Below are positions 28,501 to 51,100 of a DNA stretch of 54,464 nucleotides, piece by piece. The position numbers and the translations under genes are program-made. This DNA is from Prorocentrum cordatum (taxonomy: Eukaryota), in assembly GCA_963575745.1 (NCBI GenBank), contig CAUYUJ010000239.1:62001-116464 (forward strand). Reading direction: 5' to 3'. A model generated the notes under the pieces. That model saw only the letters and a program-made list of their open reading frames with translations. It was not told the origin of the DNA and did no database searches. Each line of letters opens with the position of its first letter. Position 1 is the first letter of the stretch.

Positions 28501-29179
28501 GGGCAAACCCAGCCTGGCCCAACTCACGCTCTACAAGCAGTGGATGTGGGGCCAAAGATATGGCGCTATCTTGTTTTCCAGTTGAGTTGGATACCTCACC
28601 TGACTTTGTGCAGAATGAGCCCTCGGTGACGGGGGGTTCTCAAGAGCTCGGAGAGTCCGTTGGGAGCAGACCATCTGGGGAGGAGCCATCACAAACACAT
28701 ACCTAGAATCGCCGCAAACGTATCACACACTGGCGCCGGCGGTGAACCGTCAACCTGGTCACCGGCGGTGAACCGTTTTTCTTAAAATCTGCATTTTCAA
28801 TTTTCGATGTTAATACGAGGTCGGTTCCCGGAAGTGAACCCATAGTATAAATCCCTTATTAGAGCTGAGCTGCTCTGGGGACGAAGTTTATATACGTATG
28901 CTTAGCGCAAAAATCTGCTTTCCCAAAGAAAACAAATAATTGAATATCTTTCAAATTCTAGCAAAACTGACCAAAAGTCACCACTTTGTCCGCCCCGGCC
29001 AGGTGGGCGAACTAGCTCCAACCCGCGCCAGAATTCCTCTAGCTCATCGATGACGAAGAGCTCTACGAGGTAATATGCGAAACAGTGTCAAGATGGCCAA
29101 AAGAACAGACGGGTATCCCTGGGGACCACCTCACCCACTCGCCCTGCCTGTGAGTTGCCAGAGGGACCGCGGACATCAA
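25531..29179 (+). pseudogene. Decayed LINE ORF2 (APE + RT), same clade as the 15909 element
   Basis: One frame with stops at 25802, 27797 and 28583. Motifs SIYLP, IDAN, YDYL, SDH, GSDGV, LDVACAFD, VRTG, WADN. Interrupted by a B element at 28730-29072. Confidence 0.88.
28730..29072 (-). mobile_element. Family-B non-autonomous Helitron2-like element with a rearranged 3' hairpin
   Basis: a|ctggcgccggcggtgaaccgtcaacc ... gaagagctctacgaggta. The LINE sequence continues on both sides without a TSD. Confidence 0.8.
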
Positions 29180-31382
29180 CTGGGCGCAGGCGGTAAACCG
29201 TCAACCGTTCTTACCGCCGGGGACTCGTAGAGCTTCCTGACCACATATTGCGTCCAAAGAATCAGCAGAGGATGAATAGTTTTCAGCCCATCGCTGATAG
29301 CCTGAGTCGCAAACCAAGTTCAGACCTCTGGATGTTACAGACGAGCGCGCCTAATAACTCTGAATCAACTTCTGTGCGTATGAGCTCTCTGGCTCTCCTA
29401 CAGCCCGAGTTACGTGCGGAAACCGAGAGCACCACTCAAGGCGACCCGACGATACGAATAGTTTCGCGGACCTACCTCCGGCAGCAGACTCAGTTCAGAA
29501 CTCTGGATGCAACAGACGAACGCGTCTGATTATTCGGAATCCGTTTCTGCAAGTATCAGCTCTGCAGCTCTTCTACAGCTCGAGTTAAGTACAGAAAACG
29601 GACGACGCGTCTCAAGATCACCCAAAATAGCCGATCCCGCCGGTGTGCTTTTTGGCAGTAATATCTACCCGATCGAGCTGAGATTGAGAAGCATCGGGGG
29701 CGTTCGGCTGTTGCATCCGAGATGTTTGAAATTGCTTGGGCTGAAAAACAGTTTTTTCTGAGTATTTTTCTCGACACTATATGTTGTCAGGAAGCTCTAA
29801 GAGTCCCCCGGCTGTAACAAAGGTTGACGCGTTACCGCCGGCGCCCAGTCTTCTTTTCTGACCGGGTCGACCAACTAGCTCTGCCCCGCGCCGGAATTCC
29901 TCTAGCTCGTCGATGCCGAAGAGCTTTACGAGGTATGTGTTCCGAGAAGCGCTGTGCAAGGAAAGAGTGATCTGGTTGACGCTTTACTGCTGGTTCCCAG
30001 TACTGGGCGCCGGCGGTAAACCGTCAACCTTGGTTACCGCCGGGGAACTCGTAGAGCTTCCTAGCTCGACTTAAGTTGAGAAAACCGACAGCACCTACCA
30101 ACATTCTGACTTATAGTGAATAGTATTTGACCTCTGAATGCGACAGGCGGACGCGTCTCATGTCTGCGAATCGACTCCTGTCATTACCAGCCCTGCAGCC
30201 CCCCTACAGCCCGAGTTAAGTGCAGAAAACCGACAGCATCTCTCAGGATGACTCGAACAATACAATAGTTTCGCAGACCTAATTCGGGCAGCAGACCGAG
30301 TTTCGAGCTCTGGATTCGACAGACGGACGCGCATGATCTCTTCGAATCGATTCATGTGAGAACCAGCACTGTAGCCTGCTCTCAGCGCAAGTTGTGAAGA
30401 AAACCGAGAGCATCTCTCAAGATCACTCGACCAATACGAATAATTTCGCGAGTCTGGATCGGGCAGCTGACCGAGTTCAGGGCTCTGGATTCGAAAGACA
30501 CGCAACTGACGATTCTAAATCAGTTTCTCTAAATATCAACTTTGTAGCTGTCATACAGCTCGAGTTAAGTACAGAAAATCGAGAGTTCCTGTTAAAATGA
30601 CTCGAATACTACGGATAGATTTGCGAACCTAGCTCGGCTCACAGACCGAGTTCAGACCTCTAAATTGGATAGACGAACGCGCCTAATCATTATACATCGA
30701 TTAGCTGTGTTCACCAGCTCTGTAGCTGCTCTAAAGCTCGAGTTATGTTCATAAACCGTCAGCGCGTATCAAGATGACTCTAAACAGCCGATCCCGCCAC
30801 AGTGCTTTTCGATAGTAATATTCACCCGATCGAGCTGAGATCGAGATGGCGAGCGGGAATAAGATCGAATATCACGGGAATACTAGAGCCCAAACGAATC
30901 ATTGAATTTCGAGAACAAAATTTTCTTACCGACAAAAAGTCACCAAAAGTTCCGTCGAGATTTTTCTTGCCAACTAGCTCTCCAGTGCGTCGGAACTGGG
31001 CGCCGGCGGTTTACTGCTGGTTCCCAATACTGGACGCCGGCGGTAAACCGTCAACATTGGTTACTGCCGGGGGACTTGTAGAGCTTCCTGACAATATATA
31101 ATATCGAAAAAAATGTAGAGAACGAATAGTTTTTCAGCCCAAGCGATTTCAGACATTTCGGATCCCCGATGCTGCTAGATTGTCTTCTGTACGAGCTCTG
31201 TAGCTCTCCTACAGCCCGAGTTACGTGCGTAAATCGACAGCACCTCTCAAGATGACTCGAACAATACGAATAGTTTGGCAAACCTGGCTCGAGTATTAGA
31301 CCGAGTTCAGACCTCTGCATGCGACAGGCGGACGCGTCTGATTTCTTTGAATCGATTCCTATGATTACCAGCCCTCCCCGTA

Positions 31383-32502
31383 CTGGGCGCCGGCGGTAAA
31401 CCGTCAACCTTTCTTACCGCCGGGGGACTCGTAGAGCTTCCTGACAATATATAATGTAGAAAAGAATTTCAGAGAACGACTAGTTTTTCAGCACAAGCGA
31501 TTATAGACCTCTCAAGATGACTCTAACAAAACAAACGAACAGTTTTCCAATCGAGCTCGAGTATGAAACCGAGTTCAGACCTCTGAATGCGACAGGCGGA
31601 CGCGTCTGATGTCTGCGGATCGATTCCTGTGATTACCAGCTCTGCAGCCCCCCATACAGCCTGAGTTAAGTGCAGAAAACCGAGAGTACCTCTCAGGATG
31701 ACTCGAATAATACAACAGTTTCGCGGATCTCGTTCGAGCAGCAGACCGAGTTCCGAGCTCTCGGTTCGACGAACGGACGCGCCTGATGTCTCGAAATCGA
31801 TTCCTGTGACCAGCAGCACTGTAGCCCTCCCCAGCACGATTTAAGTACAGAAAACCGAGAGCACTTCTCAAGATGACTCGAACAATACCAATAGGTTCGC
31901 GAACCTAGCTCGGGGAGCAGGCCGAGTTCAGAGCTCTTGATTCAACAGACGAACGCGCCTGATAATTCTGAATCGATTTCTGTGATTATCAGCTCTGTGG
32001 CTGCCCTACAGATCGAGTTAAGTACGAAAAACCGAGAGCGTCTGCTACAATAACTCGAATAATACGAATAGGTTTGCGACCCTAGCTCGGCTAGCAGACC
32101 GAGTTCAGACCTCTAGATTCAACAGGCGAACGCGCCTGATCATTCTGAATGCATTAGCTGTGCTTACCAGCTCTGTAGCTGTCCTAAAGCTCAAGTTATG
32201 TTCAGATAACCGACAGCGCGTATCAAGATGACTCGAAACGGCCGTTCCCGCCTGCCTGCTTTTTGGCCTTCAAAGTTACCCGATCGAGCTGAGATCAAGA
32301 TGGCGAGCGGGAAAAAGATCGAATATCATGGGAAAAAAAACTAGAGCTCTAACGAATTGTCAAATTTCGAGAACCAAATTTTCAACCGACCAAAAGTCAG
32401 CAAAAGGTCCGTCGAGATTTTTCTTGTCAACTAGCTCTCCAGCTCCCCGGAATTACTCTTAAGCTTCCAGCAATAACTTGCTAAGGGAAGCTCTACGAGT
32501 TA
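31383..32502 (-). mobile_element. Intact family-A element (1120 bp)
   Basis: Both ends present (ctgggcgccggcggtaa... and ...ggaagctctacgagtta). Internal ccgagtt anchors at 31568, 31745, 31921 and 32098 give a 176-177-bp period. Confidence 0.88.
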
Positions 32503-33781
32503 CGATCTCGCCTGATACGCGGGCGCGCCAACACTGGCGCCGGCGGTAAACCGTCAACCTTTCTTACCGCCGGGGGACTCGTAGAGCTTCCTGACAATAT
32601 ATAATGTAGAAAAGAATTTCAGAGAACGACTAGTTTTTCAGCCCAAGCGATTATAGACCTCTCAAGATGACTCTAACAAAACAAACGAACAGTTTTCCAA
32701 TCGAGCTCGAGTATGAAACCGAGTTCAGACCTCTGAATGCGACAGGCGGACGCGTCTGATGTCTGCGGATCGATTCCTGTGATTACCAGCTCTGCAGCCC
32801 CCCATACAGCCTGAGTTAAGTGCAGAAAACCGAGAGTACCTCTCAGGATGACTCGAATAATACAACAGTTTCGCGGATCTCGTTCGAGCAGCAGACCGAG
32901 TTCCGAGCTCTCGGTTCGACGAACGGACGCGCCTGATGTCTCGAAATCGATTCCTGTGACCAGCAGCACTGTAGCCCTCCCCCAGCACGATTTAAGTACA
33001 GAAAACCGAGAGCACTTCTCAAGATGACTCGAACAATACCAATAGGTTCGCGAACCTAGCTCGGGGAGCAGGCCGAGTTCAGAGCTCTTGATTCAACAGA
33101 CGAACGCGCCTGATAATTCTGAATCGATTTCTGTGATTATCAGCTCTGTGGCTGCCCTACAGATCGATTTAGTACGAAAAACCGAGAGCGTCTGCTACAA
33201 TAACTCGAATAATACGAATAGGTTTGCGACCCTAGCTCGGCTAGCAGACCGAGTTCAGACCTCTAGATTCAACAGGCGAACGCGCCTGATCATTCTGAAT
33301 GCATTAGCTGTGCTTACCAGCTCTGTAGCTGTCCTAAAGCTCAGTTATGTTCAGATAACCGACAGCGCGTATCAAGATGACTCGAAACGGCCGTTCCCGC
33401 CTGCCTGCTTTTTGGCCTTCAAAGTTACCCGATCGAGCTGAGATCAAGATGGCGAGCGGGAATAAGATCGAATATCATGGGAAAAAATACTAGAGCTTTA
33501 ACGAATTGTCAAATTTCGAGAACCAAATTTTCAACCGACCAAAAGTCAGCAAAAGGTCCGTCGAGATTTTTCTTGTCAACTAGCTCTCCAGCTCCCCGGA
33601 ACTGGGCGCCGGCGGTACACCGTCAACCTTTCTACCGCCGGGGGACTCGTAGAGCTTCCTGACAATATATAATGTGGAAAAGGATTTCAGAGAACGACTA
33701 GTTTTTCAGCCCAAGCGATTATAGACCTCTCAAGATGACTCTAACAAAACAAACGAACAGTTTTCCAATCGAGCTCGAGTA

Positions 33782-34907
33782 CTGGGCGCCGGCGGTAAAC
33801 CGTCAACCTTTCTTACCGCCGGGGGACTCGTAGAGCTTCCTGACAGTATATAATGTGGTGAGAAATGCCAGAGAAATATTTTTTCATCCCAAGCGATTTC
33901 AGACCTCTCAAGATGACGCTAACAAAAAAAACAAACAGTTTGGTAACCCTGCTCGAGTATCAAACCGAGTTGAGACCTCTGAATGCGACAGGCGGACGCG
34001 TCTGATGTCTGCGAATCGACTCCAGTAATTACCAGCTCTGCAGCCCCCCTACAGCCCGAGTTAAGTGCAGACAACCGACAGCACCTCTCAGCATGACTCG
34101 AATAATACAATAGTTTCGCGGAGCTAGTTCGAGCAGCAGACCGAGTTCCGAGCTTTGGGTTCGACAGACGGACGCGCCTGATGTTCCCGAATCGATTTCT
34201 GTGACCAGCAGCACTGTAGCACCCCCCCCCCCCCCCCAGCAAGAGTTAAGTGCAGAAAACTGAGAGCATTTATCAAGATGACTCAAATAATGCTACTAGT
34301 TTCGCGAAACTAGCTCGGGCAGCAGGCCGAGTTCAGAGCTCGTGATTCAACAGACCGGCGCGCCTGATGATTCTCAATCGATTCATGTGACTATGAGCTC
34401 TGTCGCTGCCCTACAGCTCGAGTTGAGTACAAAAAACCAAGAGGGTCTGCTCAGATGACTCGAATAATACAAATAGGTTTGCGGACCTGGCTCGGCTAGC
34501 AGACCGAGTTCAGACCTCTTGATTGAACAGGCGAACGCGCCTCATCATTCTGAATCGATTAGCTGTGCTTACCAGCCCTGTAGCTGTCCTAATGCTCGAG
34601 TTATGTTCAGCAAACCGCGATCGCGTAGCAAAATGACTTAAAACGGCCGATCCCGCCTGCCCGCTTTTTGGCAGTGAAAGGTACCCGATCGAGCTGAGAT
34701 CAAGATGGCGAGCGGAAATAAGATCACATATCATGGGAAAAAATACTAGAGCTCAAACGAATTGTTGAATTTCGAGAACAAAATTTTCAACCGACCAAAA
34801 GTCACCAAAAGGTCCGTCGAGATTTTTCTTGCCAACTAGCTCTCCAGCGCGCCGGAATTACTCTTAAGCTTCCAGCAATAACTTGCTAAGGGAAGCTCTA
34901 CGAGTTT
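33782..34907 (-). mobile_element. Intact family-A element nested in the copy starting at 33602
   Basis: Host gagctcgagta|tgaaaccgag is split with no TSD and resumes at 34908. Confidence 0.88.
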
Positions 34908-37866
34908 TGAAACCGAGTTCAGACCTCTCAATGCGACAGGCGGGCGCGTCTGATGTCTGCGGATCGATTCCTGTGATTACCAGCTCTGCAGCCCCCCCAT
35001 ACAGCCTGAGTTAAGTGCAAAAAACCGAGAGCACCTCTCAGGATGACTCGAATAATACAACAGTTTCGCCGATCTCGCTCGAGCAGCAGACCGAGTTCCG
35101 AGCTCTCGGTTCGACGAACGGACGCGCCTGATGTCTCGAAATCGATTCCTGTGACCAGCAGCACTGTAGCCCTCCCCCAGCACGATTTAAGTACAGAAAA
35201 CCGAGAGCACTTCTCAAGATGACTCGAACAATACCAATAGGTTCGCGAACCTAGCTCGGGGAGCAGGCCGAGTTCAGAGCTCTTGATTCAACAGACGAAC
35301 GCGCCTGATAATTCTCAATCGATTTCTGTGATTATCAGCTCTGTGGCTGCCCTACAGATCGAGTTAAGTACGAAAAACCGAGAGCGTCTGCTACAATGAC
35401 TCGAATAATACGAATAGGTTTGCGACCCTAGCTCGGCTAGCAGACCGAGTTCAGACCTCTGGATTCAACAGGCGAACGCGCCTGATCATTCTGAATGCAT
35501 TAGCTGTGCTGACCAGCTCTGTAGTTGTCCTGAAGCTCGAGTTATCTTGAGAAAACCGACAGCGCGTATCAAGATGACTCGAAACGGCCGTTCCCGCCTG
35601 CCTGCTTTTTGGCCTTCAAAGTTACCCGATCGAGCTGAGATCAAGATGGCGAGCGGGAATAAGATCGAATATCATGGGAAAAAATACTAGAGCTCTAACG
35701 AATGGTCAAATTTCGAGAACAAAATTTTCAACCGACCAAAAGTCACAAAAGGTCCGTCGAGATTTTTCTTGCCAACTAGCTCTCCAGCTCCCCGGAACTG
35801 GGCGCCAGCGGTAAAACCGTCAACCTTTCTTACCGCCGGGGGACTCGTAGAGCTTCCTGACAATATATAATGTGGAAAAGAATTTCAGAGAACGACTAGT
35901 TTTTCAGCCCAAGCGATTATAGACCTCTCAAGATGACTCTAACAAAACAAACGAACAGTTTTCCAATCGAGCTCGAGTATGAAACCGAGTTCAGACCTCT
36001 GAATGCGACAGGCGGACGCGTCTGATGTCTGCGGATCGATTCCTGTGATTACCAGCTCTGCAGCCCCCCATACAGCCTGAGTTAAGTGCAGAAAACCGAG
36101 AGTACCTCTCAGGATGACTCGAATAATACAACAGTTTCGCGGATCTCGTTCGAACAGCAGACCGAGTTCCGAGCTCTCGGTTCGACGAACGACGCGCCTG
36201 ATGTCTCGAAATCGATTCCTGTGACCAGCAGCACTGTAGCCCTCCCCCAGCACGATTTAAGTACAGAAAACCGAGAGCACTTCTCAAGATGACTCGAACA
36301 ATACCAAAAGGTTCGCGAACCTAGCTCGGGGAGCAGGCCGAGTTCAGAGCTATTGATTCAACAGACGAACGCGCCTGATAATTCTCAATCGATTTCTGTG
36401 ATTATCAGCTCTGTGGCTGCCCTACAGATCGAGTTAAGTACGAAAAACCGAGAGCGTCTGCTACAATGACTCGAATAATACGAATAGATTTGCGACCCTA
36501 GCTCGGCTAGCAGACCGAGTTCAGACCTCTGGATTCAACAGGCGAACGCGCCTGATCATTCTGAATGCATTAGCTGTGCTGACCAGCTCTGTAGTTGTCC
36601 TGAAGCTCGAGTTATCTTGAGAAAACCGACAGCGCGTATCAAGATGACTCGAAACGGCCGTTCCCGCCTGCCTGCTTTTTGGCCTTCAAAGTTACCCGAT
36701 CGAGCTGAGATCAAGATGGCGAGCGGGAATAAGATCGAATATCATGGGAAAAAATACTAGAGCTCTAACGAATGGTCAAATTTCGAGAACAAAATTTTCA
36801 ACCGACCAAAAGTCACCAAAAGGTCCGTCGAGATTTTTCTTGCCAACTAGCTCTCCAGCTCCCGGAACTGGGCGCCGGCGGTAAACCGTCAACCTTTCTT
36901 ACCGCCGGGGGACTCGTAGAGCTTCCTGACAATATATAATGCGAAAAAGAATTTCAGAGAACGACTAGTTTTTCAGCCCAAGCGATTATAGACCTCTCAA
37001 GATGACTCTAACAAAACAAACGAACAGTTTCCCAATCGAGCTCGAGTATAAAAACCGAGTTCAGACCTCTGAATGCGACAGGCGGACGCGTAGGATGTCT
37101 GCGGATCGATTCCTGTAATTACCAGCTCTGCAGCCCCCCATACAGCCTGAGTGAAGTGCAGAAAACCGAGAGTACCTCTCAGGATAACTCGAATAATACA
37201 ACAGTTTCGCGGATCTCGTTCGAGCAGCAGACCAAGTTCCGAGCTTTCGGTTCGACGAACGGACGCGCCTGATGTCTCGAAATCGATTCCTGTGACCAGC
37301 AGCACTGTAGCCCTCCCCCAGCACGATTTAAGTATTGGAAACCGAGAGCACTTCTCAAGATGAATCGAACAATACCAATAGGTTCGCGAACCTAGCTCGG
37401 GGAGCAGGCCGAGTTCAGAGCTCTCGATTCAACAGACGAACGCGTCTGATGATTCCCAAATCGATTTCTGTGATTATCAGCTCTGTGGCTGCCCTACAGA
37501 TCGAGTTCAGTACGAAAAACCGAGAGCGTCTGCTATAATAACTCGAATAATACGAATAGGTTTGGGACCCTAGCTCTGCTAGCAGACTGAGTTCGGACCT
37601 CTAGATTCGACAGCCGAACGCGCCTGATCATTCTGCATCGATTAGCTGTGCTCACCAGCTCTGTAGCTGTCCTGAAGCTCGAGTTATCTTGAGAAAACCA
37701 AGAGCGCGTATCAAGATGACTCGAAACGGCCGTTCCCGCCTGCCTGCTTTTTGGCCTTCAAAGTTACTCGATCGAGCTGAGATCAAGATGGCGAGCGGGA
37801 ATAAGATCGAATATCATGGGAAAAAATACTAGAGCTCTAACGAATTGTCAAATTTTAAGAACAAAA

Positions 37867-38264
37867 CTGGCGCCGGCGGTGAACCGTCAACCTGGTCACC
37901 GCCGGGAACCTCGTAGAGCTCCTTTCACGTAAGAGTGCTCAGAGTCGAAAGAAAAGAGCTTCTGGAAGCATTTCTCGAAAAAGAGAAAAATTGATTTTTT
38001 TCGTGTCGAGAGGAAGATGGTTCCGCCAAGTGTTTTGCTAGTAAAAGTGCGCCTACAGAGCTCATACTCAGACAGAGAGGCCCTCATAGTCGTTTACAGG
38101 TGCGAAGAATCTGCTTTCTCAAAATGAATTGTCAAATATCTTTCAAAAAATTGCAAAACCACCCGAAAGTTATCACTTTGTCCTTTTTGGCCGGGTCGAC
38201 CAACTAGCTCCGCCCCGCGCCGGAATTCCTCTAGCTCATCGATGCCGAAGAGCTCTACGAGGTA
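37867..38264 (-). mobile_element. Intact family-B element (398 bp)
   Basis: ctggcgccggcggtgaacc...tcaccgccgggaacctcgtagagctc ... gagctctacgaggta. Confidence 0.88.
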
Positions 38265-39367
38265 CTGGGCGCCGGCGGTAAACCGTCAACCTTTCTTACC
38301 GCCGGGGGACTCGTAGAGCTTCCTGACAGTATATAGCGTGGAAAAAACTTAAATAACGAATAGGTTTTCAACCCAAGCGATTTCAGATCTCAAGATGACT
38401 CTAACAAAAAAACAAACAGTTTCGCAACCCATTTCGAGTATCAAACCGAGTTCAGACCTCTCAATGCGACGGGCGGGCGCGTCTGATGTCTGCAAACACT
38501 CATAAGATTCCAAGCCCTGCAGCCCCCCTACAGCCCGAGTCTCTGTGCAGAAAACCGACAGTATCGACTCAAATACTAGAATAGTGTCGCGAACCTAGTT
38601 CGAGCAGCAGACCGAGTTCGGAGCTCTGGAATCGACCGACAGACGCGCCTGAGGTGTGGAAATCGATATCTGTGAACCGCAGCACTGTAGCCCTTCCCCA
38701 GCACGAGTTGAGTGCAGAAAATTGAGAGCACTTCTCAAGATAATACGAGATATACGAATAGTTTCGCGAACCTAGCTCGGACAGCAGGCCGAGTTCAGAG
38801 CTCTCGGTTCAATGGACGAACGCAACTGATGATTTCCCATCGATCTCTGTGACAATGAGTCCTGTAGCTGCCCTACAGCTCGAGTTAAGTACAGAAAACC
38901 GAGAGCGTTTGTCAAGACGACTCGAATAATACGGATAGGTTTGCGGGCCTAGCTCGGCTAGCAGACCGAGTTCAGACCTCTGGATTTGACAGGCGAACGC
39001 GCCTGATAATTCTGAATGCGATAGGCGTGCTTACGAGCTCTGTGGTTGCCCTACAGCTCGAGTTAAGTAGAAAATACCGACAACGCGTATCAAGATGACT
39101 CGAAACGACCGATCCCGCCGGGACGCTTTTTGGCAGTAAAAGGTACCCGATCGAGCTGAGATCAAGATGGCGAGCGGGAATAAGATCGAATATCACGGGA
39201 AAAAATACTAGAGCTCTAACGAATGGTCAAATTTCGAGAACAAAGTTTTCAACCGACCAAAAGTCAGCAAAAGGTCCGTCGAGATTTTTCTTGCCAACTA
39301 GCTCTCCAGCGCTCCGGAATTACTCAAGCTTCCAGCAATAACTTGCTAAGGGAAGCTCTACGAGTTA
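38265..39367 (-). mobile_element. Intact family-A element abutting the B element
   Basis: B+A together split host agaacaaaa|ttttcaacc (37866/39368). Confidence 0.88.
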
Positions 39368-39444
39368 TTTTCAACCGACCAAAAGTCACCAAAAGGTCCG
39401 TCGAGATTTTTCTTGTCAACTAGCTCTCCAGCTCCCCGGAATTA

Positions 39445-40493
39445 CTGGGCGCCAGCGGTAAACCGTCAACCTTGGTTACCGCCGGGAGACTCGTAGAGCT
39501 TCCTAACTCGACTTAAGTTGAGAAACCAGACAGCACTTACCAACAATCTGACTTATAGTGAATAGTTTTTGACTTCTGAATACGACAGACGGACGCGTCT
39601 GATGTCTACGAATCGACTCCTGTCATTACCAACCCTGCAGCCACCCTACAGCCCGAGTTAAGTACAGAAATCCAACAGCTCCTCTCAGGATGACTCGAAC
39701 AATAAAATAGTTTCGTGGACCTAGTTCGGGCAGCAGACAGAGTTCGGAGCTCTGTATTCGACAGGCAAGCGCGCCTGATGTCTTGAAATCGATTCCAGTG
39801 ATTACCAGCCATGCAGCCCCCCCTATAGCCCGATTAAGTTCAGATAACCGACAGCATCTCGCAAGCGACTCGAACGATACGAATAGTTTCGCGATTCTAG
39901 ATCGGGCAGCAGACCGAGTTCGGAGCTCTGCATTCGACAGACAAACGCAATTGATGATTCTGAATTGGCACCTGTAAATATCAGCTCTGACGCTGTCCTA
40001 CAGCTCGAGTTAAGTGCAGAAATCAAGAGCTTTTGTCAAGATGACTCGAATAATACGAACAGGTTCGCGGACCTAGCTCGGCTAGCAGACCGAGTTCAGA
40101 CCTCTGGGTTGAACAGGCGAACGCGCCTAATCATTGTGAATGCATTAGCTGTGCTTACCAGCTCTGTAGCTGCCCTAGAGCTCGAGTTATGTTCAGAAAA
40201 CCGTCAGCGCATATCAAGATGACTCGAAACGGTCGTTCCCGCCACAGTGCTTTTCGATAGTAGTATTCACCCGATCGAGCTGAGATCAAGATGGCGAGCG
40301 GGAATGAGATCTAATATCACGGGAAAAAATACTAGAGCTCTAACGAATGGTCAAATTTTGAGAACAAAATTTTCAGCCGAGCAAAAGTCAGCAAAAGGTC
40401 CGTCGAGATTTTTCTTGCCAACTAGCTCTCCAGCGCTCCGGAATTACTCTAAAGCTTCCAGCAATAACTTGCTAAGGGAAGCTCTACGAGTTA
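39445..40493 (-). mobile_element. Intact family-A element
   Basis: Both termini present. The next copy starts directly at 40494. Confidence 0.88.
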
Positions 40494-43371
40494 CTGGGCG
40501 CCGGCGGTAAACCGTCAACCTTGGTTACCGCCGGGAGACTCGTAGAGCTTCCTAACTCGACTTAAATTGAGAAAACCGAGAGCACTTACCAACAATCTGA
40601 CTTATAGTGAATAGTTTTTTACCTCTGAATACGACAGACGGACGCGTCTGATGTCTGCGAATCGACTTCTGTCATGACTAGCCCTGCAGCCCTTCTACAG
40701 CCCGAGTTAAACGCAGAAAACCGACAGCACTTCTCAGGATGACTCGAACAATAAAATAGTTTCGCGCACCTAGTTCGGGCAGCAGACAGAGTTCGGAGCT
40801 CTCTATTCGACAGGCGCACGCGCCTGATGTCTTCAAATCGATTCCAGCGATTACCAGCCATGCAGCCCCCCTACAGCAGCATCTCGCAAGCAACTCGAAC
40901 GATACGAATAGTTTCGCGCTTCTAGATCGGGCAGCAGACCGAGTTCAGAGCTCTAGATTCGGCAGACAAACGCAACTGATGATTCTGAATCGGTGCCTGT
41001 AAATATCAGCTCTGACGCTGTCCTACAGCTCGAGTTAAGTGCAGAAAACCAAGAGTTTTTGTCAAGACGACTCGAATAATACGAACAGGTTTGCGGACCT
41101 AGCTCGGCCAGTAGACCGAGTTCAGACCTCTGGGTTCAACAGGCGAACGCGCCTGATCATTCTGCATGCATTAGCTGTGCTCACCAGCTCTGTAGCTGCC
41201 CTAGAGCTCGAGTTATGTTCAGAAAACCGTCAGCGCATATCAAGATGACTCGAAACGGCCGTTCCCGCCACAGTGCTTTTCGATAGTAATATTCACCCGA
41301 TCGAGCTGAGATCAAGATGGCGAGCGGGAATAAGATCGAATATCACGGCAAAAAAATACTAGAGCTCAAACGAATGGTCAAATTTTGAGAACGAAATTTT
41401 CAACCGAGCAAAAGTCACCAAATGGACGCCGGCGGTAAACCGTCAACCTTGGTTACCGCCGGGAGACTCGTAGAGCTTCTCGACTGAAGTTGAGAACGCC
41501 GAGCACCTACCAACATTCCGACTCATAGTGAATATTTTGTGACCTCTCAATGCGACAGGCGAACGCGTCTGATGTCTGCGAGTCGACTGCTGTCATCACC
41601 AGCCCTGCAGCCCCCCTACAGCCCGAGTTGAGTACAGCACCTCTCAGGATGACTCCAACAATACAGTAGTTTCGCAGACCTCATTCGGGCAGCAGACCGA
41701 GTTCCGAGCTCTGGATTCGACAGGCGGACGCGTCTGATGTCTTCAACTGGATTCCTGTGACCACAAGCACTGTAGCTCCCCTCAGCGCGAGTTAAATGGA
41801 GGCAACCGAGAGCACTTCTCAAGATGGTTCGACCAATACGAATAGTTTCGCGATTCTAGATCGGGTAGCAGACCGAGTTCAGAGCTCTGAATTCGACACA
41901 CAAACGCAACTGATGATTCTGAATCGTTTCCTGTAAATATCAGCTCCGTAGCTGTCCTACAGCTCGAGCTAAGTAGAAAAAACCGAGAGTTCCTGTCAAG
42001 ATGCCTTCAATAATACAAATAGGTTTCCAGACCTAGCTCGGCTAGCAGACCGAGTTCAGACCTCTGGGTTCAACAGGCGAACGCGCCTCATCATTCTGAA
42101 TGCGATAGCTGTGCTTACCAGCTCTGTAGCTGCCCTGAAGCTCGAGTTATGTTCAGATAACCGTCAGCGCGTATCAAGATGACTCCAAACGGACGATCCC
42201 GCCACAGTGCTTTTTGACAGTAATATTCACCCGATCGAGCTGAGATCAAGATGGCGAGCGGGAATAAGGTCGAATATCACGGGAAAAAATACTAGAGCTC
42301 TAACGAATGGTCAAATTTCGAGAACAAAATTTTCAACCGAGGAAAAATCACCAAAAGTTCCGTCGAGATTTTTCTTGCCAACTAGCTCTCCAGCGCTCCG
42401 GAATTACTGGGCGCCGGCGGTAAACCGTCAACCTTTGTTACCGCCGGGGGACTCGTAGAGCTTCCTGAGAACATATAATGTAGAAAAAAAATTCAGAGAA
42501 CGAATAGTTTTTCAGTCCAACTCGAGTATCAGAGCGAGTTCAGACCTCTGAATGCGACAGACGGACGCGTCTGATGTCTTCGAATCGATTCATGTGATTA
42601 CCCGCCCTGCAGCCTCCCTACAGCCCGAGTTAAGTGCAGAACGCCGACAGTAGCGCTCAAGATGACTGGAAGAATACGAACAGTTTCGTGATTCTGAATC
42701 GCTCAGCAGACCGAGTTCAGAGCTCTGGAATCGACAGACAAACGCAACTGATCATTCTGGATTGGTTTCTGTAACTATCAGCCCTGTAGCTGTCCTATAG
42801 CTCGAGTTAAGTACAAGAAACCGAGAGCGCCTATCAGGATGATTCGAATAATACGAATAGGTTTGCGGACCTGGCTCGGCTAGCAGACCGAGTTCAGACC
42901 TCTGGTTCGAACAGCCGAACGCGCCTGATGATTCTGAGTGCGATAGGTGTGCTTACCAGCACTATAGCTGCCCTACAGCTCGAGTTAAGTAGAAAATACC
43001 GACAACGCGTATCAAGTTGACTCGAATAATAAGAATAGGTTTGCGAACCTAGCTCGGCTAGCAGACCGAGTTCAGACCTATGGATTCAACAGGCGAACGC
43101 GCCTGATCATTCTGCATGCATTAGCTGTGCTGACCAGCACTAAAGCTGCCCTACAGCTCGAGTTAAGTACAAAATACCGACAACGCGTATCAAGATGACT
43201 CGAAACGGCTGATCCCGCCACCGTGCTTTTCGATAGTAATATTCACCCGATCGATCTGAGATCAAGATGGCGAACGAAAAAAAGATCGAATATCACGGGA
43301 AAAAATACTAGACCTCTAACGAATCGTCAAATTTCGAGAACAAAATTTTCAACCGACCAAAAGTCACCAAA

Positions 43372-44333
43372 CTGGGTGCCGGCGGTAAACCGTCAACCTT
43401 GGTTACCGCCGGGAGACTCGTAGAGCTTCCTAACTCGACTTAAGTTGAGAAAACCGAGAGCACTTACCAACAATCTGACTTATAGTGAATAGCCCGAGTG
43501 AAGTGCAGAAAACCGACAGCACCTCTCAGGATGACTCGAACAATAGGAATAGTTTCGCGAACCTAGTTCGGGCAGCAGACAGAGTTCAGAGCTTTGCATT
43601 CGACAGGCGGACGCCTGATGTCTTCAAATCGATTCCAGTGATTACCAGCCATGCAGCCCCCCTACAGCCCGACTTAAGTCCAGATAACCGACAGCATCTT
43701 CCAAGCGACTTGAACGATACGAATAGTTTAACGATTCTAGATCGGGCAGCAGACCGAGTTCAGAGCTCTGGCTTCGAGAGACAAACGCAACTGATGATTC
43801 TGAATTGGTGCCTGTGAATATGAGCTCTGTAGCTGTCCTACAGCTCGAGTTAAGTCGAGAAAACCGAGAGTTTATGTCAAGATGACTCGAATAATACGAA
43901 TAGGTTTGCGGACCTAGCTCGGCTAGCAGGCCGAGTTCAGACCTCTGGGTTCAACAGGCGAACGTGCCTGATCATTCTGCATGTATTAGCTGTGCTTACC
44001 AGCTCTGTAGCTACCCTGGAGCTCGAGTTATGTTGAGAAAACCGTCAGCGCGTATCAAGATGACTCGAAACGGCCGTTCCCGCCACAGTGCTTTTCGATA
44101 GTAATATTCACCCGATCGAGCTGAGATCAAGATGGCGAGCGGGAATAAGATCGAATATCACGGGAAAAAATACTAGAGCTCTAACGAATAGTCAAATTTC
44201 GAGAACCAAATTTTCAACCGAGGAAAAGTCACCAAAAGTTCCGTCGAGATTTTTCTTGCCAACTAGCTTTCCAGCGCGCCGGAATTACTCTTAGCTTCCA
44301 GCATTTACTTGCTAAGGGAAGCTCTACGAGTTA
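43372..44333 (-). mobile_element. Intact family-A element
   Basis: Splits host gtcaccaaa|agttccgtcg with no TSD. Confidence 0.88.
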
Positions 44334-45676
44334 AGTTCCGTCGAGATTTTTCTTGCCAACTAGCTCTCCAGCGCTCCGGAACTTGCTATGTCCAAAACCC
44401 GGATAGCATTAGGCGCTCGAAACTGGGCGCCGGCGGTAAACCGTCAATCTTGGTTACCGCCGGGGAACTCGTAGAGCTTCCAAGCTCGACTTAAGTTGAG
44501 AAAACCGAGAGCACCTACCAACATTCTGACTTATAGTGAATATGGTTTGACCTCTGAATGCGACAAGCAGACGCGTCTAATCAGACCGAGTTCAGATCTC
44601 TCAATGTGACAGACGGACGCGTCTGATGTATGCGAATCGACTCGTGTGATTACCAGCCCTGCAGCCCCCCTACAGCCCGAGTTAAGTCCGACAGCATCTC
44701 TCAGGATAACTCGAATAATAAAATAGTTTCGCAGACCTGTTTCGAGCAGCAGACCAAGTTCTCAGCTCTCGAATCGACCAACGAACGCGCCTCATGTGTG
44801 CAAATCGATTTCTATGACCCGCAGCACTGTAGCCCTCCCCAGCACGAGTTGAGTGCAGAAAATTGAGAGCACTTTTCACGATGATTCGAACAATACGAAT
44901 TATTTCGCGATTCTACATCGGGCAGCAGGCCGAGTTCAGAGCTCTCGATACAACAGACAAACGCGCCCGATAATTCTCAATCGATTTCTGTGGCTGTGGG
45001 CTCTGTAGCTGCCTACAGCTCGAGTTAAGTACAGAAAATAGCGAGAGCGTTTGTCAAGATGGACAACGCGTATCAAGTTGACTCGAATAATACGAATAGG
45101 TTTGCGGACCTAGCTCGGCTAGCAGACCGAGTTCAGACCTATGGATTCAACAGACGAACGCGCCTGATGATTCTGAGTGCGATAGGTGTGCTTACCCGCA
45201 CTGTAGCTGCCCTACAGCTCGAGTTGAGAAGAAAATACCGACAACGCGTATCAAGTTGACTCGAATAATACGAATAGGTTTGCGGACTTAGCTCGGCTAG
45301 CAGACCGAGTTCAGACCTATGGATTCAACAGGCGAACGCGCCTGATGATTTTGATTGCGATAGCTGTGGTTACCAGCTCTGTAGCTGTCCTAGAGCTCGA
45401 GTTAAGTACAAAATACCGACAACGTGCATCAAGATGACTCGAAACGGCCGATCCCGCCAGTGCTTTTTGGCAGTAAAAGGTACCCGATCGAGCTGAGATG
45501 AAGATGGCGAGCGGAATTAAGATCGAATATCACGGGAAAAAATACTAGAGCTCTAACGAATGGTCAAATTTCGAGAACATAATTTTCAACCGACCAAAAG
45601 TTGTGAAAAGTTCGGTTCTTTTTTTTCGAGCCAACTAGCTCTCCAGCGCGCCGGAATTACTCTTAGCTTCCAGCTA

Positions 45677-46019
45677 CTTGCTATGTCCAAAAAACCCGGA
45701 TAGCATTAGGCGCTCGAAACGTCGTCGGAGACGCCTGGAACGGCGCCTTGGACGATGCCTGGGGCGCTGCGCGAGGACCGCGCAAGCGCTGCGTAGGAGC
45801 TTGCGAGCGCCGTGGCGATGACTGCCTGGGAGCTTCGGCAACGCCGCCGCCACGCGTATTGGGAAACGCTAGGAACAGCGCTCCCGGACACGCTGCAAGC
45901 CCCGGCGAGTCGCTGCGGGGGTCGTGGAGCGGGGAGCGTGGGAGTGCAGCGATGCACGCGCACCCGCCGGCTTCTCCTCTAACAACCCTATGTAGCCCAA
46001 CAAAAGGGCTATCCGGGAA
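45677..46019 (-). mobile_element. Intact family-C element (343 bp)
   Basis: cttgctatgtccaaaaaacccggatagc ... tagcccaacaaaagggctatccgggaa. A second copy is split into 44382-44422 and 46449-46748. Confidence 0.85.
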
Positions 46020-46022
46020 TAA

Positions 46023-46422
46023 CTGGCGCCGGCGGTGAACCGTCAACCTGGACACCGCCGGGAACCTCGTAGAGCTCCTGGCACGCGTAAGAGTGCTCAG
46101 CATCAAAAGAGAAAGCTTCTCGAAGCATTTCTCGGAAAACAGGAAACATGATTTTTTTTGATGTCGACATAAAGATGGTTCCGCCAAGTGTTTTGATAGT
46201 AAAAGCGCATCTACAGAGCTCATATTAAGACGCAGAGGCCCTCATAGTCGTTTACAGGTGCGAAAAATCTGCTTTCTCAAAATAAATGGTCAAATATCTG
46301 TTAAATTCTTGCAAAACCGACCAAAAGTTACCACATTGTCCGTTCTGGTCGGGTCGACCAACTAGCTCCACCCCGCGCCGGAATTCCTCTAGCTCATCGA
46401 TGCCGAAGAGCTCTACGAGGTA
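46023..46422 (-). mobile_element. Intact family-B element
   Basis: Both ends present. Removing C and B restores host cagcta|taa|ctagctaaggg, as seen uninterrupted at 53441-53460. Confidence 0.88.
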
Positions 46423-47133
46423 CTAGCTAAGGGAAGCTCTACGAGTTACGTCGTCGGAGACGCCTGGAACGGCGCCTTGGACGATGCCTGGGGCGCTGCG
46501 CGAGGACCGCGCAAGCGCTGCGTAGGAGCTTGCGAGCGCCGTGGCGATGACTGCCTGGGAGCTTCGGCAACGCCGCCGCCACGCGTATTGGGAAACGCTA
46601 GGAACAGCGCTCCCGGACACGCTGCAAGCCCCGGCGAGTCGCTGCGGGGATCGTGGAGCGCGGAGCGTGGGAGTGCGGCGATGCACGCGCACCCGCCGGC
46701 TTCTCCTCTAACAACCCTATGTAGCCCAACACAAGGGCTATCCGGGAATTACTCTTAAGCTTCCAGCAATACCGTGCTAAGGGAAGCTCTACGAGTTACT
46801 CTCAAGCTTCCAGCAACAACTTGCTTAGGGGAGCTCTACGAGTTAGTTCCGTCGAGATTTTTCTTGCCAACTAGCTCTCCAGCGCTCCGGAATTACTCTA
46901 AAGCTTCCAGCAATAACTTGCTAAGGGAAGCTCTACGAGTTACTCGTAAGCTTCCAGCAATAACTTGCTAAGGGAAGCTCTACGAGTTATTACTCTTAAG
47001 CTTCCAGCAATAACTTGCTCAGGGAAGCTCTACGAGTTATTACTCTTAAGCTTCCAGCAACTGGGCGCCGGCGGTAAACCGTCAACCTTGGTTACCGCCG
47101 GGAGACTCGTAGAGCTTCCTAACTCGACTTAAA

Positions 47134-48192
47134 TAACACGTAGAGCTTCCCTCAGCAAGTTATTGCTGGAAGCTTTAGAGTAATTCCGGAGCGCTGGAGA
47201 GCTAGAAGGCAAGAAAAATCTCGACGGAACTTTTGGTGACTTTTGGTCGGTTGAAAATTTTGTTCTCGTGATTTGACCATTCGTTAGAGCTCTAGTATTT
47301 TTTCCCGTGATATTCGATCTTATTCCCGCTCGCCATCTTGATCTCAGATCGATCGGGTGAATATTACTATCGAAAAGCACGGTGGCGGGATCGGCCGTTT
47401 CGAGTCATCTTGATACGCGTTGTCGGTATTTTGTTCTTAACTCGAGCTGTAGGCAGCTACAGTGCTGATAAGCACACCTATCGCACTCAGAATCATCAGG
47501 CGCGTTCGCCTGTTGAATCCATAGGTCGGAACTCGGTCTGCTAGCCGAGCTAGGTTCGCAAACCTAGTCGTATTATTCGAGTCAACTTGATACGCGTTAT
47601 CGGTATTTTCTACTGAACTCGAGCTGTAGGGCAGCTACAGTGCTGGTAAGCACACTTATCGCTCTCAGAATGATCAGGCGCGTTCGACTGTTCGAACCAG
47701 AGGTCTGAACTCGGCCTGCTAGCCGAGCCAGGTCCGCAAACTTATTCGTATTATTCGAATTATCTCGATAGGCGCTCTCGATTCCCTGTACCTAACTCGA
47801 GCTATAGGACAGCTACAGGGCTGATAGTTACAGAAACCGATTCAGAATCATCAGTCGCGCTTGTCTGTCGAATCCAGAGCTCTGAACTCGGTCTGCTGCG
47901 CGATCCAGAATCACGAAACTGTGTATTCTTCCAGTCATCTTGAGAGCTACTGTCGGCGTTCTGCACTTAACTCGGGCTGTAGGGAGCTGCAGGGCGGGTA
48001 ATCACATGAATCGATTCGGAGACATCAGACGCGTCCGTCTGTCGCATACAGAGGTCTGAACTCGGTCTGATACTCGAGTTGGACTGAAAAACTATTCGTT
48101 CTCTGCAATTTTTTCCGACATTATATGTTGTCAGGAAGCTCTACGAGTCCCCCGGCGGTAACAAAGGTTGACGGTTTACCGCCGGCGCCCAG
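47134..48192 (+). mobile_element. Intact family-A element in the opposite orientation
   Basis: TAACACGTAGAGCTTCC...TTACCGCCGGCGCCCAG splits host cgacttaaa|tcgagaaaacc with no TSD. Confidence 0.9.
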
Positions 48193-51100
48193 TCGAGAAA
48201 ACCGAGAGCACTTACCAACAATCTGACTTATAGTGAATAGTTTTTTACCTCTGAATACGACAGACGGACGCGTCTGATGTCTGCGAACCGACTTCTGTCA
48301 TCACTAGCCCTGCAGCCCTTCTACAGCCCGAGTTAAACGCAGAAAACCGACAGCACTTCTCAGGATGACTCGAACAATAAAATAGTTTCGCGCACCTAGT
48401 TCGGGCAGCAGACAGAGTTCGGAGCTCTCTATTCGACAGGCGGACGCGCCTGATGTCTTCAAATCGATTCCAGCGATTACCAGCCATGCAGCCCCCCTAC
48501 AGCAGCATCTCGCAAGCAACTCGAACGATACGAATAGTTTCGCGATTCTAGATCGGGCAGCAGACCGAGTTCAGAGCTCTAGATTCGGCAGACAAACGCA
48601 ACTGATGATTCTGAATCGGCGCCTGTAAATATCAGCTTTGACGCTGTCCTACAGCTCGAGTTAAGTGCAGAAAACCAAGAGTTTTTGTCAAGACGACTCG
48701 AATAATACGAACAGGTTTGCGGACCCAGCTCGGCCAGTAGACCGAGTTCAGACCTCTGGGTTCAACAGGCGAACGCGCCTGATCATTCTGCATGCATTAG
48801 CTGTGCTCACCAGCTCTGTAGCTGCCCTAGAGCTCGAGTTATGTTCAGAAAACCGTCAGCGCATATCAAGATGACTCGAAACGGCCGTTCCCGCCACAGT
48901 GCTTTTCGATAGTAATATTCACCCGATCGAGCTGAGATCAAGATGGCGAGCGGGAATAAGATCGAATATCACCGGAAAAAATACTAGAGCTCTAACGAAT
49001 GGTCAAATTTCGAGAACGAAATTTTCAACCGAGCAAAAGTCACCAAAAGTTCCGTCGAGATTTTTCTTGCCAACTAGCTCTCCAGCGCTCCGGAACTGGC
49101 GCCGGCGGTGAACCGTCAACCTGGTGACCGCCGGGAACCTCGCAGAGCTCCTCTCACTGCTAAGTGTGCAGAGAATCGACACAAAGTGGAAAACAAGAAA
49201 TTTTTCGAAAATCTTGATTTTCGATTTTTTCGATGTTCATGTTCGCTCAGTTCCCGGAAGTGAACTCATGCAAAAATGCATCGGGAGAGCTGAGCTGCTG
49301 TCAGAGAGGAGTTTACATGCCAATGCGACGCGCATAAATCTGCTTTCTCAAAGTAAATGGTCAAATATCTTTCAAACTGGGCGCCGGCGGTAAACCGTCA
49401 ACCTTGGTTACCGCCGGGGAACTCGTAGAGCTTCCTGACTCGACTTAAGTTGAGAAAACAGACAGCACTTACGAACAATCTGACTTATAGGAAAATAGTT
49501 TTTGACCTCTAAATGCGACAGACAGGCGCGTCTGATGTCTGCAAATCGACGCCTGTCATTACAAGCCCTGCAGCTCCCCTACAGCCCGAGTTAAGTGCAG
49601 AAACCCGACAGCACCTCTCAGGATGACTCGAACAATAGGAATAGTTTCGCGGACCTAGTTCGGGCAGCAGACGAAGTTCAGAGCTCTATATTCGACATGC
49701 GGACGCGCCTGATGTCTTCAAATCGATCCCAGTGATAACCAGCCATGCAGCCCCCCTACAGCCCGAGTTAAGTCCAGATAATCGACATTATCTTGCAAGC
49801 GACTCGAACGATACGAATAGTTTCGCGATTCTAGATCGGGCAGCAGGCCGAGTTCAGAGCTTTCGAGTCGACAGACAAACGCAACTGATGATTATGAATT
49901 GGTGCCTCTGAATATCAGCTCTGTAGCTGTCCTACAGCTCGAGTTAAGTGTAGAAAACCGAGCGTTTCTGTCAAAATGACTCGAATAATACGAACAGGTT
50001 TGTGACCCTAGCTCGGCTAGCAGACCGATTTCAGACCCCTGGATTCGACAGGCGAACGCGCCTGATCATTCTGCATTCTCAAAGTAAATGGCCAAATATC
50101 TTTCAAATTTTCGCAAAACCGACCAAAAGTCACCAATTTGTCCTTTCTGGCCGGGCGGTCCAACTAGCTCCACCCCGCGCCGGAATTCCTGTAGCTCATC
50201 GATGCCGAAGAGCTCTACGAGGTATTACACTAAAGCTTCCAGCAATAACTTGCTAAGGGAAGCTCTACGAGTTACTTGTAAGCGTCCAAAACCCGGATAG
50301 CAACTGGGCGCCGGCGGTAAACCGTCAACCTTGGTTACCGCCGGGGGACTCGTAGAGCTTCCTAACTCGACTTAAGTTGAGAAAAGAGACAGCACTTACC
50401 AACAATCTGACTTATAGTGAATAGTTTTTTACTCTGAATGCGACAGACGGACGCGTCTGATGTCTGCGAATCGACTCCTGTCATTATCAGCCCTGCCGCC
50501 CCCCTACAGCCCGAGTTAAGTGCAGAAACCCGACAGCACCTCTCAGGATGACTCGAATAATAGGAATAGTTTCGCGGACCTAGTCCAGCAGACAGAGTTC
50601 AGAGCTCTGTATTCGACATGCGGACGCGCCTCATGTCTTCAAATCGATCCCAGTGATTACCAGCCATGCAGCCCCCCCTACAGCCCGAGTTAAGTCCAGA
50701 TAACCGACATTATCTCGCAAGCGACTCGAACGATACGAATAGTTTCGCGATTCTAGATCGCGCAGCAGGCCGAGTTCAGAGCTCTGGAGTCGACAGACAA
50801 ACGCAACCGATGATTCTGAATTGGTGCCTCTGAATATCAGCTCTGTAGCTGTCCTACAGCTCGAGTTAAGTCCAGAAAATCGAGCGTTTCTGTAAAAATG
50901 ACTCGAATAATACGAACAGGTTTGTGATCCTAGCTCGGCTAGCAGACCGAGTTCAGACCTCTGGATTCAACAGGCGAACGCGCCTGATCATTCTGCATGC
51001 ATTAGCTGTGCTTACCAGCTCTGTAGCTGCCCTAGAGCTCGAGTTATCTTCAGAAAACCGTCAGCGCATATCAAGATGACTCAAAACGGCCGATCCCGCC

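Follow-up and report, generated by a model that had tools for sequence, protein, structure and literature searches.

The stretch of DNA analysed here, referred to below as the window, comprises 54,464 nucleotides of Prorocentrum cordatum contig CAUYUJ010000239.1 (GenBank assembly GCA_963575745.1, positions 62,001 to 116,464 of the forward strand). From approximately 29.2 kb to its end, the window is made up almost wholly of copies of a non-coding element, designated A (1.0–1.13 kb), with which two further elements are associated, B (approximately 400 nt) and C (approximately 343 nt, GC-rich). The satellite-like segment at 32534–47060 is the subject of this report. It is a stack of such elements, ten layers deep, without target site duplications (TSDs), in which the openings and closings are balanced like brackets, as an initial annotation made from the nucleotide letters alone had proposed.

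Every A copy, read on the + strand, starts with CTGGGCGCCGGCGGTAAACCGTCAACC and ends with GGAAGCTCTACGAGTTA, and A copies contain three to four internal tandem repeats of 177 bp. Within these copies, Tandem Repeats Finder (TRF) reports a 177-bp period with 1.9–3.8 copies per array row and 73–92% matches. All of the stack elements lie on the minus strand in Helitron orientation. The elements of the stack, the intact reference copy to its left and the elements adjoining the stack on its right are as follows (percentages are identities).

31383–32502, minus: A31383, the intact reference A (1119–1120 nt), with its 5′ end at 32502 and its 3′ end at 31384 in Helitron orientation; perfect 15-nt inverted repeat (31427–31441 with 32486–32500), 10-bp hairpin arms (31390–31399 and 31414–31423) and internal 177-bp repeat in 3.8 copies (TRF)
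32534–33601, minus: A32534, layer 1 body, stopping at a site 50 nt from its own 5′ end; A positions 4–1070 at 99.3% (BLAST), 99.5% pairwise to A31383; leftover end not present in the window
33602–33781 and 34908–35797, minus: A33602, layer 2 body, whose end resumes at 47040–47060; two junctions clean against A31383, 97.3% overall
33782–34907: A33782, complete, nested in A33602
35798–36867, minus: A35798, layer 3 body, with a 50-nt end at 46990–47039; clean junction, 97.5% to A31383
36868–37866 and 39368–39444, minus: A36868, layer 4 body, with a 47-nt end at 46943–46989; both junctions clean
37867–38264 and 38265–39367: B37867 and A38265, respectively, together at one site inside A36868
39445–40493, minus: A39445, complete, in tandem with A40494 at the same A36868 site
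40494–41422, minus: A40494, layer 5 body, with a 97-nt end at 46846–46942
41423–42406, minus: A41423, layer 6 body, with a 47-nt end at 46799–46845; clean junction
42407–43371 and 44334–44381, minus: A42407, layer 7, with a 50-nt end at 46749–46798; both junctions clean against the reverse complement of A47134, 93.7%
43372–44333: A43372, complete, inside A42407
44382–44422, minus: C44382, layer 8, first 41 nt, the other 300 nt being at 46449–46748; 98.25% to C45677 when rejoined
44423–45676, minus: A44423, layer 9 body, resuming with TAA at 46020–46022 and then with its last 26 nt at 46423–46448
45677–46019, minus: C45677, layer 10, complete, 343 nt, GC-rich, with its own asymmetric inverted repeats CCCGGATAGC and GCTATCCGGG
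46023–46422, minus: B46023, layer 10, complete, 400 nt, sharing the A-type hairpin terminus; 88.5% to B37867
46423–47060, minus: closing side, consisting of the A44423 end, the C44382 remainder and then the leftover 5′ ends of A42407, A41423, A40494, A36868, A35798 and A33602 (partial), in that order
47061–47133, 48193–49095 and 50225–50274, minus: A47061, in the hairpin loop of the end of A33602; carries B49096 with A49377, the B49096/A49377 junction being irregular
47134–48192, plus in Helitron orientation: A47134, in A47061, in reverse orientation

A bracket-balanced stack without target site duplications

The window was searched by BLAST with the intact copy (31383–32502), and with its head and its tail separately. 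A heads were found on the + strand at 32534, 33602, 35798, 36868, 40494, 41423, 42407 and 44423, and tail ends at 46448, 46798, 46845, 46942, 46989 and 47039; two further heads (44382 and 45677) belong to C and one (46023) to B. It is apparent that the openings run from left to right and that the leftover ends at 46423–47060 close in exact reverse order. The order of openings and closings listed in the initial annotation agrees with these matches.

For excision in silico, the pieces were rejoined by their coordinates and each rebuilt element was aligned to intact copies. The rejoined hosts are collinear with the intact copies at 13 of the 15 junctions overall, one of the remaining two being a 2-nt deletion and the other irregular. 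Extra or duplicated bases are likewise absent from 13/15 rejoined junctions, the exceptions being the 2-nt loss and a 31-nt duplication at the B49096/A49377 junction; the elements are TSD-less, as had been claimed for them, and indels or TSDs are not found at most junctions. Among the hosts A33602, A35798, A36868, A40494, A41423, A42407 and A44423, 10 of 11 junctions have neither a gap nor a duplicated target. The junction is clean in the rejoined C44382 (41+300 nt), which agrees with C45677 at 337 of 343 positions, and the two junctions of A47061, which lies outside 32534–47060, are clean as well. The 41422/46846 junction had been described as off by one base. One A is indeed missing there, and comparison with A47061 (98.7% identical, the rejoined A40494 matching it at 1013 of 1026 positions) refines the description to a 2-nt loss across the junction, made up of one host A and the first C of the insert.

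When placed on one reference scale, six interrupted bodies stop at 1069, 1069, 1072, 1021, 1072 and 1069, and six leftover ends start at 1070, 1073, 1023, 1073, 1070 and 1070. Last-in-first-out pairing of bodies and ends, which is how the stack had been said to close, leaves gaps of 0, 0, 0, 1, 0 and 0, whereas first-in-first-out pairing leaves gaps of 0, 3, –50, 51, –3 and 0 and is not clean. Clean pairings of the six bodies with the six ends number 12 of 720, last-in-first-out among them. TRF calls a 47-bp ‘tandem repeat’ at 46749–47060; because the stops of the bodies and the starts of the ends match in reverse order, this ‘repeat’ is the pile of leftover ends, which is what the repeats of approximately 48 bp at this position had originally been taken to be.

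Neither of the two outermost elements is fully closed within the window. A32534 has no closure there, and the closure of A33602 is partial, 21 nt being present before it is interrupted by A47061. The stack therefore continues past 47060 and past the end of the window, at which, judged from the sequence, at least seven elements are still open. Two or three inserts apiece are found in A33602, A36868, A42407, A44423 and A47061, and the structure is therefore a tree and not a pure chain.

Target sites and class of the elements

A total of 19 insertion events was tabulated, 18 of which are in the orientation of the host (binomial, 3.8e–5). When the host is an A element (1119 nt), 15 of 17 inserts are situated no further than 124 nt from its 5′ end (binomial, 5e–13), the individual distances being as follows.

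26, 29 and 29 nt: three events, in or at the edge of the 5′ hairpin loop
47 and 47 nt: two events, at the hairpin base
50 nt: five events, at the hairpin base
72 and 73 nt: two events, beyond the hairpin
97 and 98 nt: two events, beyond the hairpin
124 nt: one event, beyond the hairpin

Ten A-host insertions sit in the loop (26–29 nt) or at the base (47–50 nt) of the 5′ hairpin. A T is situated directly 3′ of the insert in 19/19 events, and the 3′-flanking dinucleotide, with the reversed insert put in its own orientation, is TT in 13 events, TA in 4, TC in 1 and TG in 1 (n=19). The regularity of the stack follows from a target choice that centres on the hairpin and is strand-specific.

The minus strand is taken as the Helitron orientation since it sets the end that bears the hairpin on the 3′ side. 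In this orientation, A begins with TAACTCG (5′-TAACTCGTAGAGC) and ends with CGCCCAG-3′. Its 5′ inverted-repeat arm, ACTCGTAGAGCTTCC, is 15 nt long, perfect, and starts at nt 3 (2 nt from the end); the first 48 nt, including this arm, fold as one hairpin (–12.6 kcal/mol, z=–3.4, 0/200 shuffles as good). The 3′ arm, GGAAGCTCTACGAGT, is followed by 5 nt, by a 10-bp stem (CCGGCGGTAA/TTACCGCCGG) with a 14-nt loop, and by 7 nt to the end, and the fold of this 3′ hairpin is unexceptional in comparison with shuffles (z=–1.7). B has the same layout as A, its 5′ end also folds as a hairpin (z=–2.1), and its differences from A hit both inverted-repeat arms. Thus, the paired arms read ACTCG.../...CGAGT in A and ACCTCG.../...CGAGGT in B, and the 3′ stem reads GGTAA/TTACC in A and GGTGA/TCACC in B (an A–T to G–C change), in a comparison of compensatory changes that covers these two families and was read directly from the sequences. 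C is unlike A and B in sequence, yet it has the same asymmetric arrangement; its 5′ hairpin is weak (z=–1.5).

In Helitron2 elements, the 5′ inverted repeat is described as lying 0–2 nt from the end and pairing downstream into a 5′ hairpin, with the 3′ inverted repeat in a subterminal position, just upstream of the 3′ hairpin and approximately 20–30 nt from the end (Bao and Jurka 2013, PMC3627910). The Helentron-associated interspersed elements (HINEs), which are DINE-1-like, are described as having central tandem or simple repeats (Thomas et al. 2014, PMC4067079). The elements of the stack resemble these groups in several respects. They have an asymmetric 5′-terminal inverted repeat that forms a hairpin, with its partner upstream of a 3′ hairpin; they are non-coding, have central tandem repeats and lack a TSD; and they start with T, have T-rich target flanks and show paired changes, affecting the two arms, between related families. 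They differ in how strongly they favour the 5′ hairpin region of existing copies as a target, with a ten-layer nest as the outcome. Because the inverted repeats, both hairpins, the central tandem repeats and the absence of TSDs occur together, the stack is assigned, with a probability of roughly 0.8, to the non-autonomous rolling-circle transposons of the Helitron2/Helentron type (HLE2, HINE-like), as a nest of three related families. The locus does not reveal a new class of element.

Two other assignments were rejected. A canonical Helitron (Helitron1) would have 5′-TC and CTRR-3′ ends, one 3′ hairpin approximately 11 nt from the end and insertion strictly between A and T. Those ends are absent; the elements have two hairpins and inverted repeats, and insertion is between A and T in only 8 of the 14 events for which both flanks are known. 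A short interspersed nuclear element (SINE) or other retroposed element, of which a tRNA-, 7SL- or 5S-like head, a 3′ tail and TSDs would be expected, was rejected in view of the lack of a tRNA-like sequence, of an Rfam family and of a TSD, the Rfam and tRNA scans having yielded no Rfam family, no ribozyme and no tRNA-like head.

Growth of the stack and competing explanations

No reading other than repeated insertion from within accommodates the matched break points, the reverse closure and the mixture of subfamilies and families. Identity among the layers is 82–99%, and families A, B and C are all present. Layers 2 and 3 are 98.8% alike and the four outer layers 95–99%; the inner layers are other A subfamilies, 82–94% alike. 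Given the three families and the divergence of the A subfamilies, most inserts are not copies of their host, and given these differences the layers cannot be concatemers of one template. The proposal that the array grows by self-insertion is therefore supported by the matched break points, with the restriction that ‘self’ holds only at the level of the family, A, B and C being mixed.

The array had also been thought to record its own insertion chronology. It does so in relative terms: nesting order is relative chronology, valid only along one path of the tree. The divergence of the layers was expressed as pairwise identities among copies. The outermost A32534 differs from A31383 by only 0.5% and, if that value caps the change since insertion, this suggests a recent burst in which sources that were numerous and already diverged gave rise to the whole stack, an argument that gene conversion among neighbouring copies would weaken.

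As to mechanism, a Rep/Hel transposase encoded elsewhere in the genome may mobilise A, B and C as single strands or circles. Integration would be strand-specific, either into the 5′ hairpin of a resident copy or next to it, and the hairpin might be chosen because the enzyme binds it or because it is exposed as single-stranded DNA. An insertion would split the preferred site of the host, and the newcomer would supply a fresh, intact one, so that the next insertion would tend toward the newest copy. The outcome would be a deep chain, with short 5′ ends piled on one side and 5′-truncated bodies arrayed on the other. This tendency is favoured by a simple simulation, in which a depth of 10 among 16–20 elements had a probability of 0.0007–0.003 when hosts were chosen uniformly and of 0.07–0.14 when the main site could be used only once. 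A more general proposition, that this Helitron2-like group integrates through recognition of the resident 5′ hairpin (its structure and strand, with loop or foot as the target), site renewal then building satellite-like arrays recursively, can be put forward only tentatively, and we would not bet on it at even odds.

Independent copies of the family were found in metagenome contigs and in the four of 22 public sequencing runs that were examined (X20, X1, X2 and X3: two organism-labelled runs together with marine metagenomes). In metagenome contig L003, the host is interrupted twice, by a C-like element 98 nt and by an A element 50 nt from its 5′ end, and locus L004 has an uninterrupted loop sequence equal to the reconstructed empty site of A44423; in run X20, 20 contigs show the same loop sequence as a loose end. 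Contig joints in the four runs repeat the sites at 50, 26 and approximately 72 nt. The sides of these joints are only 18–34 nt, the short ones 18–26 nt, and for that reason the joints and the loose end probably derive from other copies of the family. No other deep stack was found in the eight metagenome contigs (1.1–3.3 kb) identified by means of the hairpin terminus. The word depth of the family, summed over the A copies in 32400–48300, is 10^3–10^4 in the four runs, and that over the C body is approximately 10 times lower. Copies of the family seem to account for much of the source genome, and the organism itself seems to be present in marine, estuarine and freshwater samples.

In five of the metagenome loci (L001, L002, L005, L007 and L008), a hairpin terminus of approximately 55 nt and an inverted-repeat arm like those of A and B are joined to an unrelated interior, and a T precedes the terminus in 5/5 (A-orientation strand). 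Several families in environmental samples seem to have this hairpin terminus in common.

A number of observations weigh against the interpretation given above. In A, the 3′ inverted repeat is 44 nt from the end, as compared with the approximately 20–30 nt published for Helitron2 (PMC3627910), and the target is not strictly TT. The ends of the elements are ambiguous by one base, and neither of the two possible readings of the target fits all events: in the Helentron manner, insertion is between T and T in 13/19, T and A in 4, T and C in 1, and T and G in 1, and in the Helitron1 manner it is between A and T in 8/14. According to the summary in PMC13085455, Helentrons insert within 5′-TT-3′ and Helitron2 elements within 5′-T(T/C)-3′. 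Two of the 17 A-host inserts are remote from the 5′ end (approximately 940 and 1047 nt), and in C hosts the three inserts are found near the 3′ end, at 29–41 nt and directly upstream of the repeat arm on that side. The hairpin rule should thus be read as a tendency rather than a law. A Pfam scan for Helitron_like_N and PIF1 domains found no Rep/Hel gene in 100 of the 124 window open reading frames (ORFs) of at least 110 aa, or in 41 of the 51 ORFs of the eight metagenome loci, and as approximately 66 kb was covered in all, this absence says little; since no such gene was found, the transposase is posited from the architecture of the elements only. The four public runs yield only contigs of approximately 100 bp, and the long-range order of the stack rests on this one assembly. 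The depth statistic, moreover, is biased, the region having been picked for its depth.

One junction also belongs among these observations. A49377 (49377–50073) is flanked by a 31-nt repeat of B49096 (49346–49376 and 50074–50104, one mismatch); it retains the hairpin end and is without approximately 355 nt on the opposite side. No other junction resembles this one, which has the appearance of a one-ended insertion accompanied by a long target duplication. The duplication recalls the variable TSDs described for some Chlamydomonas Helitron2 elements (PMC3627910).

Insertion of one Helitron2-like element into another has been considered previously. In Fusarium oxysporum, insertion of FoHeli near the 5′ end of another copy was proposed as the source of duplicated short 5′ ends (73–85 nt, generally <200 bp), and a three-copy tandem was considered possibly nested (Chellapan et al. 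2016, PMC5148889). The present stack is like the FoHeli case in its Helitron2-like self-insertion and its multiple 5′ termini. The FoHeli depth is two or three, and the choice between nesting and rolling-circle replication is left undecided in that account (PMC5148889). Here, by contrast, there are ten layers, the matched break points in reverse order decide for nesting, and the sites can be assigned to the 5′ hairpin, at its loop and its base. Nested insertions have been invoked for Paramecium Helitrons as well (PMC13085455).

The Fusarium model bears directly on the alternative that survives best, namely that there were fewer events than layers, part of the stack having arrived ready-made as a composite or chimera that already held several 5′ ends or inner inserts. 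That model, which is meant to account for elements with several 5′ ends, has mobilisation run from the outermost of them as far as the first 3′ end (PMC5148889). A second pile of four leftover ends in the window, at 23129–23457, has no matching bodies. Every leftover end of the main stack, however, has its body in place, as in-situ insertion predicts; mobilisation of a host together with its insert would need bypass of the 3′ end of the insert each time, and BLAST found no second copy of any composite in the window. A ready-made origin for part of the stack is accordingly unlikely, though it deserves to be kept in mind.

That the elements belong to another, possibly undescribed, TSD-less class, with ends resembling those of Helitron2 and moved by an enzyme other than Rep/Hel, is improbable. 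All of the Helitron2/HINE structural hallmarks are present together, scans revealed neither an Rfam family nor a ribozyme or tRNA-like head, and SINE-like retroposition would leave TSDs; the two reverse-transcriptase ORFs of the window appear to be ordinary genes like those of long interspersed nuclear elements (LINEs), unconnected to the A, B and C termini. Such a class would be compatible with the lack of a Rep/Hel gene in the scanned ORFs of the window and the eight loci, with termini (TAACTCG.../...CGCCCAG) that are not the canonical TC...CTRR, and with target dinucleotides that match neither published rule fully.

An assembly artefact, in which reads of dispersed copies were stitched into a false stack or layers were miscounted, is very improbable, even for a family as extremely abundant as this one (summed word depth 10^3–10^4 in the four runs), with four outer layers that are 95–99% alike and, as a check on their number, public contigs that are too short to span the region. 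False joins hit homologous positions and would produce collinear chimeras, not junctions of head into site and end into site; the openings and closings agree in number and class; and junctions of these types are also present in independent contigs from metagenomes and in contigs of the four runs.

Rolling-circle concatemers, that is, an array of truncated units and an array of 5′ ends from repeated or aborted replication in place of nested insertions, are scarcely credible, for although the stack has the look of the arrays described in PMC12628747 (many 5′ ends followed by truncated bodies, each with a 3′ end) and the Fusarium paper leaves both options for its three-copy tandem (PMC5148889), one template should yield near-identical units and the layers are 82–99% alike and of three families, the break points 1069/1072/1021 are mirrored in exact reverse order, and one of the split elements, closing where it should, is a C element of 341 nt. 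The tandem arrays in plants that consist of truncated Helitrons and have multiple 5′ ends (Xiong et al. 2016, as summarised in PMC12628747 and PMC5148889) have been ascribed to rolling-circle amplification of one template (PMC12628747). The present array is like them in being satellite-like, with partial units and surplus 5′ ends; unlike them, it originated by insertion, because its units are diverged and its structure is bracket-balanced.

In literature searches on such elements (main texts, without supplements), neither a deep stack of balanced brackets nor targeting to the 5′ hairpin was encountered. Self-insertion, on the other hand, had already been proposed, and the stack is an extreme and unusually clean case of a known process, together with a newly visible target rule.

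Two more distant systems provide useful comparisons. SanMiguel and colleagues reportedly used the nested retrotransposon clusters of grasses to place insertions in order of time. As in those nests, inner elements here are younger than outer ones, and a relative chronology results. The grass nests have TSDs, scattered sites and either orientation, and are datable by long terminal repeat divergence, whereas here TSDs are absent, one narrow class of site is reused and 18/19 events have the same orientation. Bacterial HUH single-strand transposons (IS200/IS605, IS91) and the hairpin repeats that related enzymes mobilise insert in a strand-specific and TSD-less manner next to a short sequence or hairpin, and small hairpin elements can insert into each other. 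The bacterial elements are prokaryotic, much smaller and of another enzyme architecture, and the analogy is one of mechanism only, not of membership.

Centromeres, subtelomeres and heterochromatin commonly contain Helitron-derived arrays, whose origin is usually ascribed to rolling-circle amplification. The stack is a clean natural case in which an array-like sequence came from repeated, oriented insertion at a narrow class of site by the elements' own 5′ hairpin. Little is known of the integration step of Helitron2-type transposases, and the stack yields a testable rule for their choice of target; it also accounts for the origin of elements with several 5′ ends and indicates that such arrays are readable as ordered records of transposition. 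If this is true generally, many arrays of truncated Helitrons with multiple 5′ ends that are now ascribed to rolling-circle amplification would be nests, and the bracket structure of arrays would give an ordered history of transposition bursts.

Neighbouring sequences

The coding sequences recognised in the window lie to the left of the array and are as follows.

15912–19691, minus: 1260-aa ORF, RVT_1 (E value, 1.9e–13), with likeness to APE-type LINEs
25805–28582, plus: 664-aa ORF, weakly similar to LINE reverse transcriptases, then a 261-aa ORF

In the Pfam scan of the window ORFs (100/124), RVT_1 in the 1260-aa ORF was the sole match. The LINE-like ORFs appear to be ordinary retrotransposons beside the array. 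Descent of C, by deletion, from an element bearing a reverse transcriptase was considered and rejected, neither of the reverse-transcriptase ORFs being tied to the A, B or C termini.

The second pile, at 23129–23457, is situated directly to the right of a C-like end at 23128. Its four leftover ends are an A end of approximately 121 nt, from the site between AAAA and TTTTCAACC, B ends of approximately 55 and 34 nt, and an A end of approximately 119 nt. BLAST revealed no interrupted bodies in the window that match these ends. The second pile may be a mobilised composite with multiple 5′ ends, or the remnant of a stack after deletion.

Immediately to the left of the stack, the 31-nt spacer at 32503–32533 was compared with A31030, sought as a continuation that would add outer layers, and aligned with it weakly. 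Further to the left, the usual insertion site of A30003, 50 nt from its 5′ end, holds only a 14-nt head fragment (30988–31029 region), which is followed by a 20-nt near copy of the left flank of A30003 (29983–30002) and then by the head of A31030. The left flank of A30003 itself resembles a degenerate, reversed hairpin end, and the arrangement at 30988–31029 could possibly have come about by flank transduction or foldback.

GC-rich, C-like units of approximately 330 bp are arranged end-to-head, in both orientations and with B ends among them, at 14368–15600 and 21000–23128, and the motif CCCGGATAGC has 17 matches as compared with 2.9 expected. The first 6–9 nt of the C-type heads at 44382, 45677, 50275 and 53477 (CTTGCTA, CTTGTAAG, CTAGCT) resemble the A hairpin to the right of its loop, and the heads at 50275 and 53477 directly adjoin an A end. 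This likeness may be a relic of the place where the C terminus formed.

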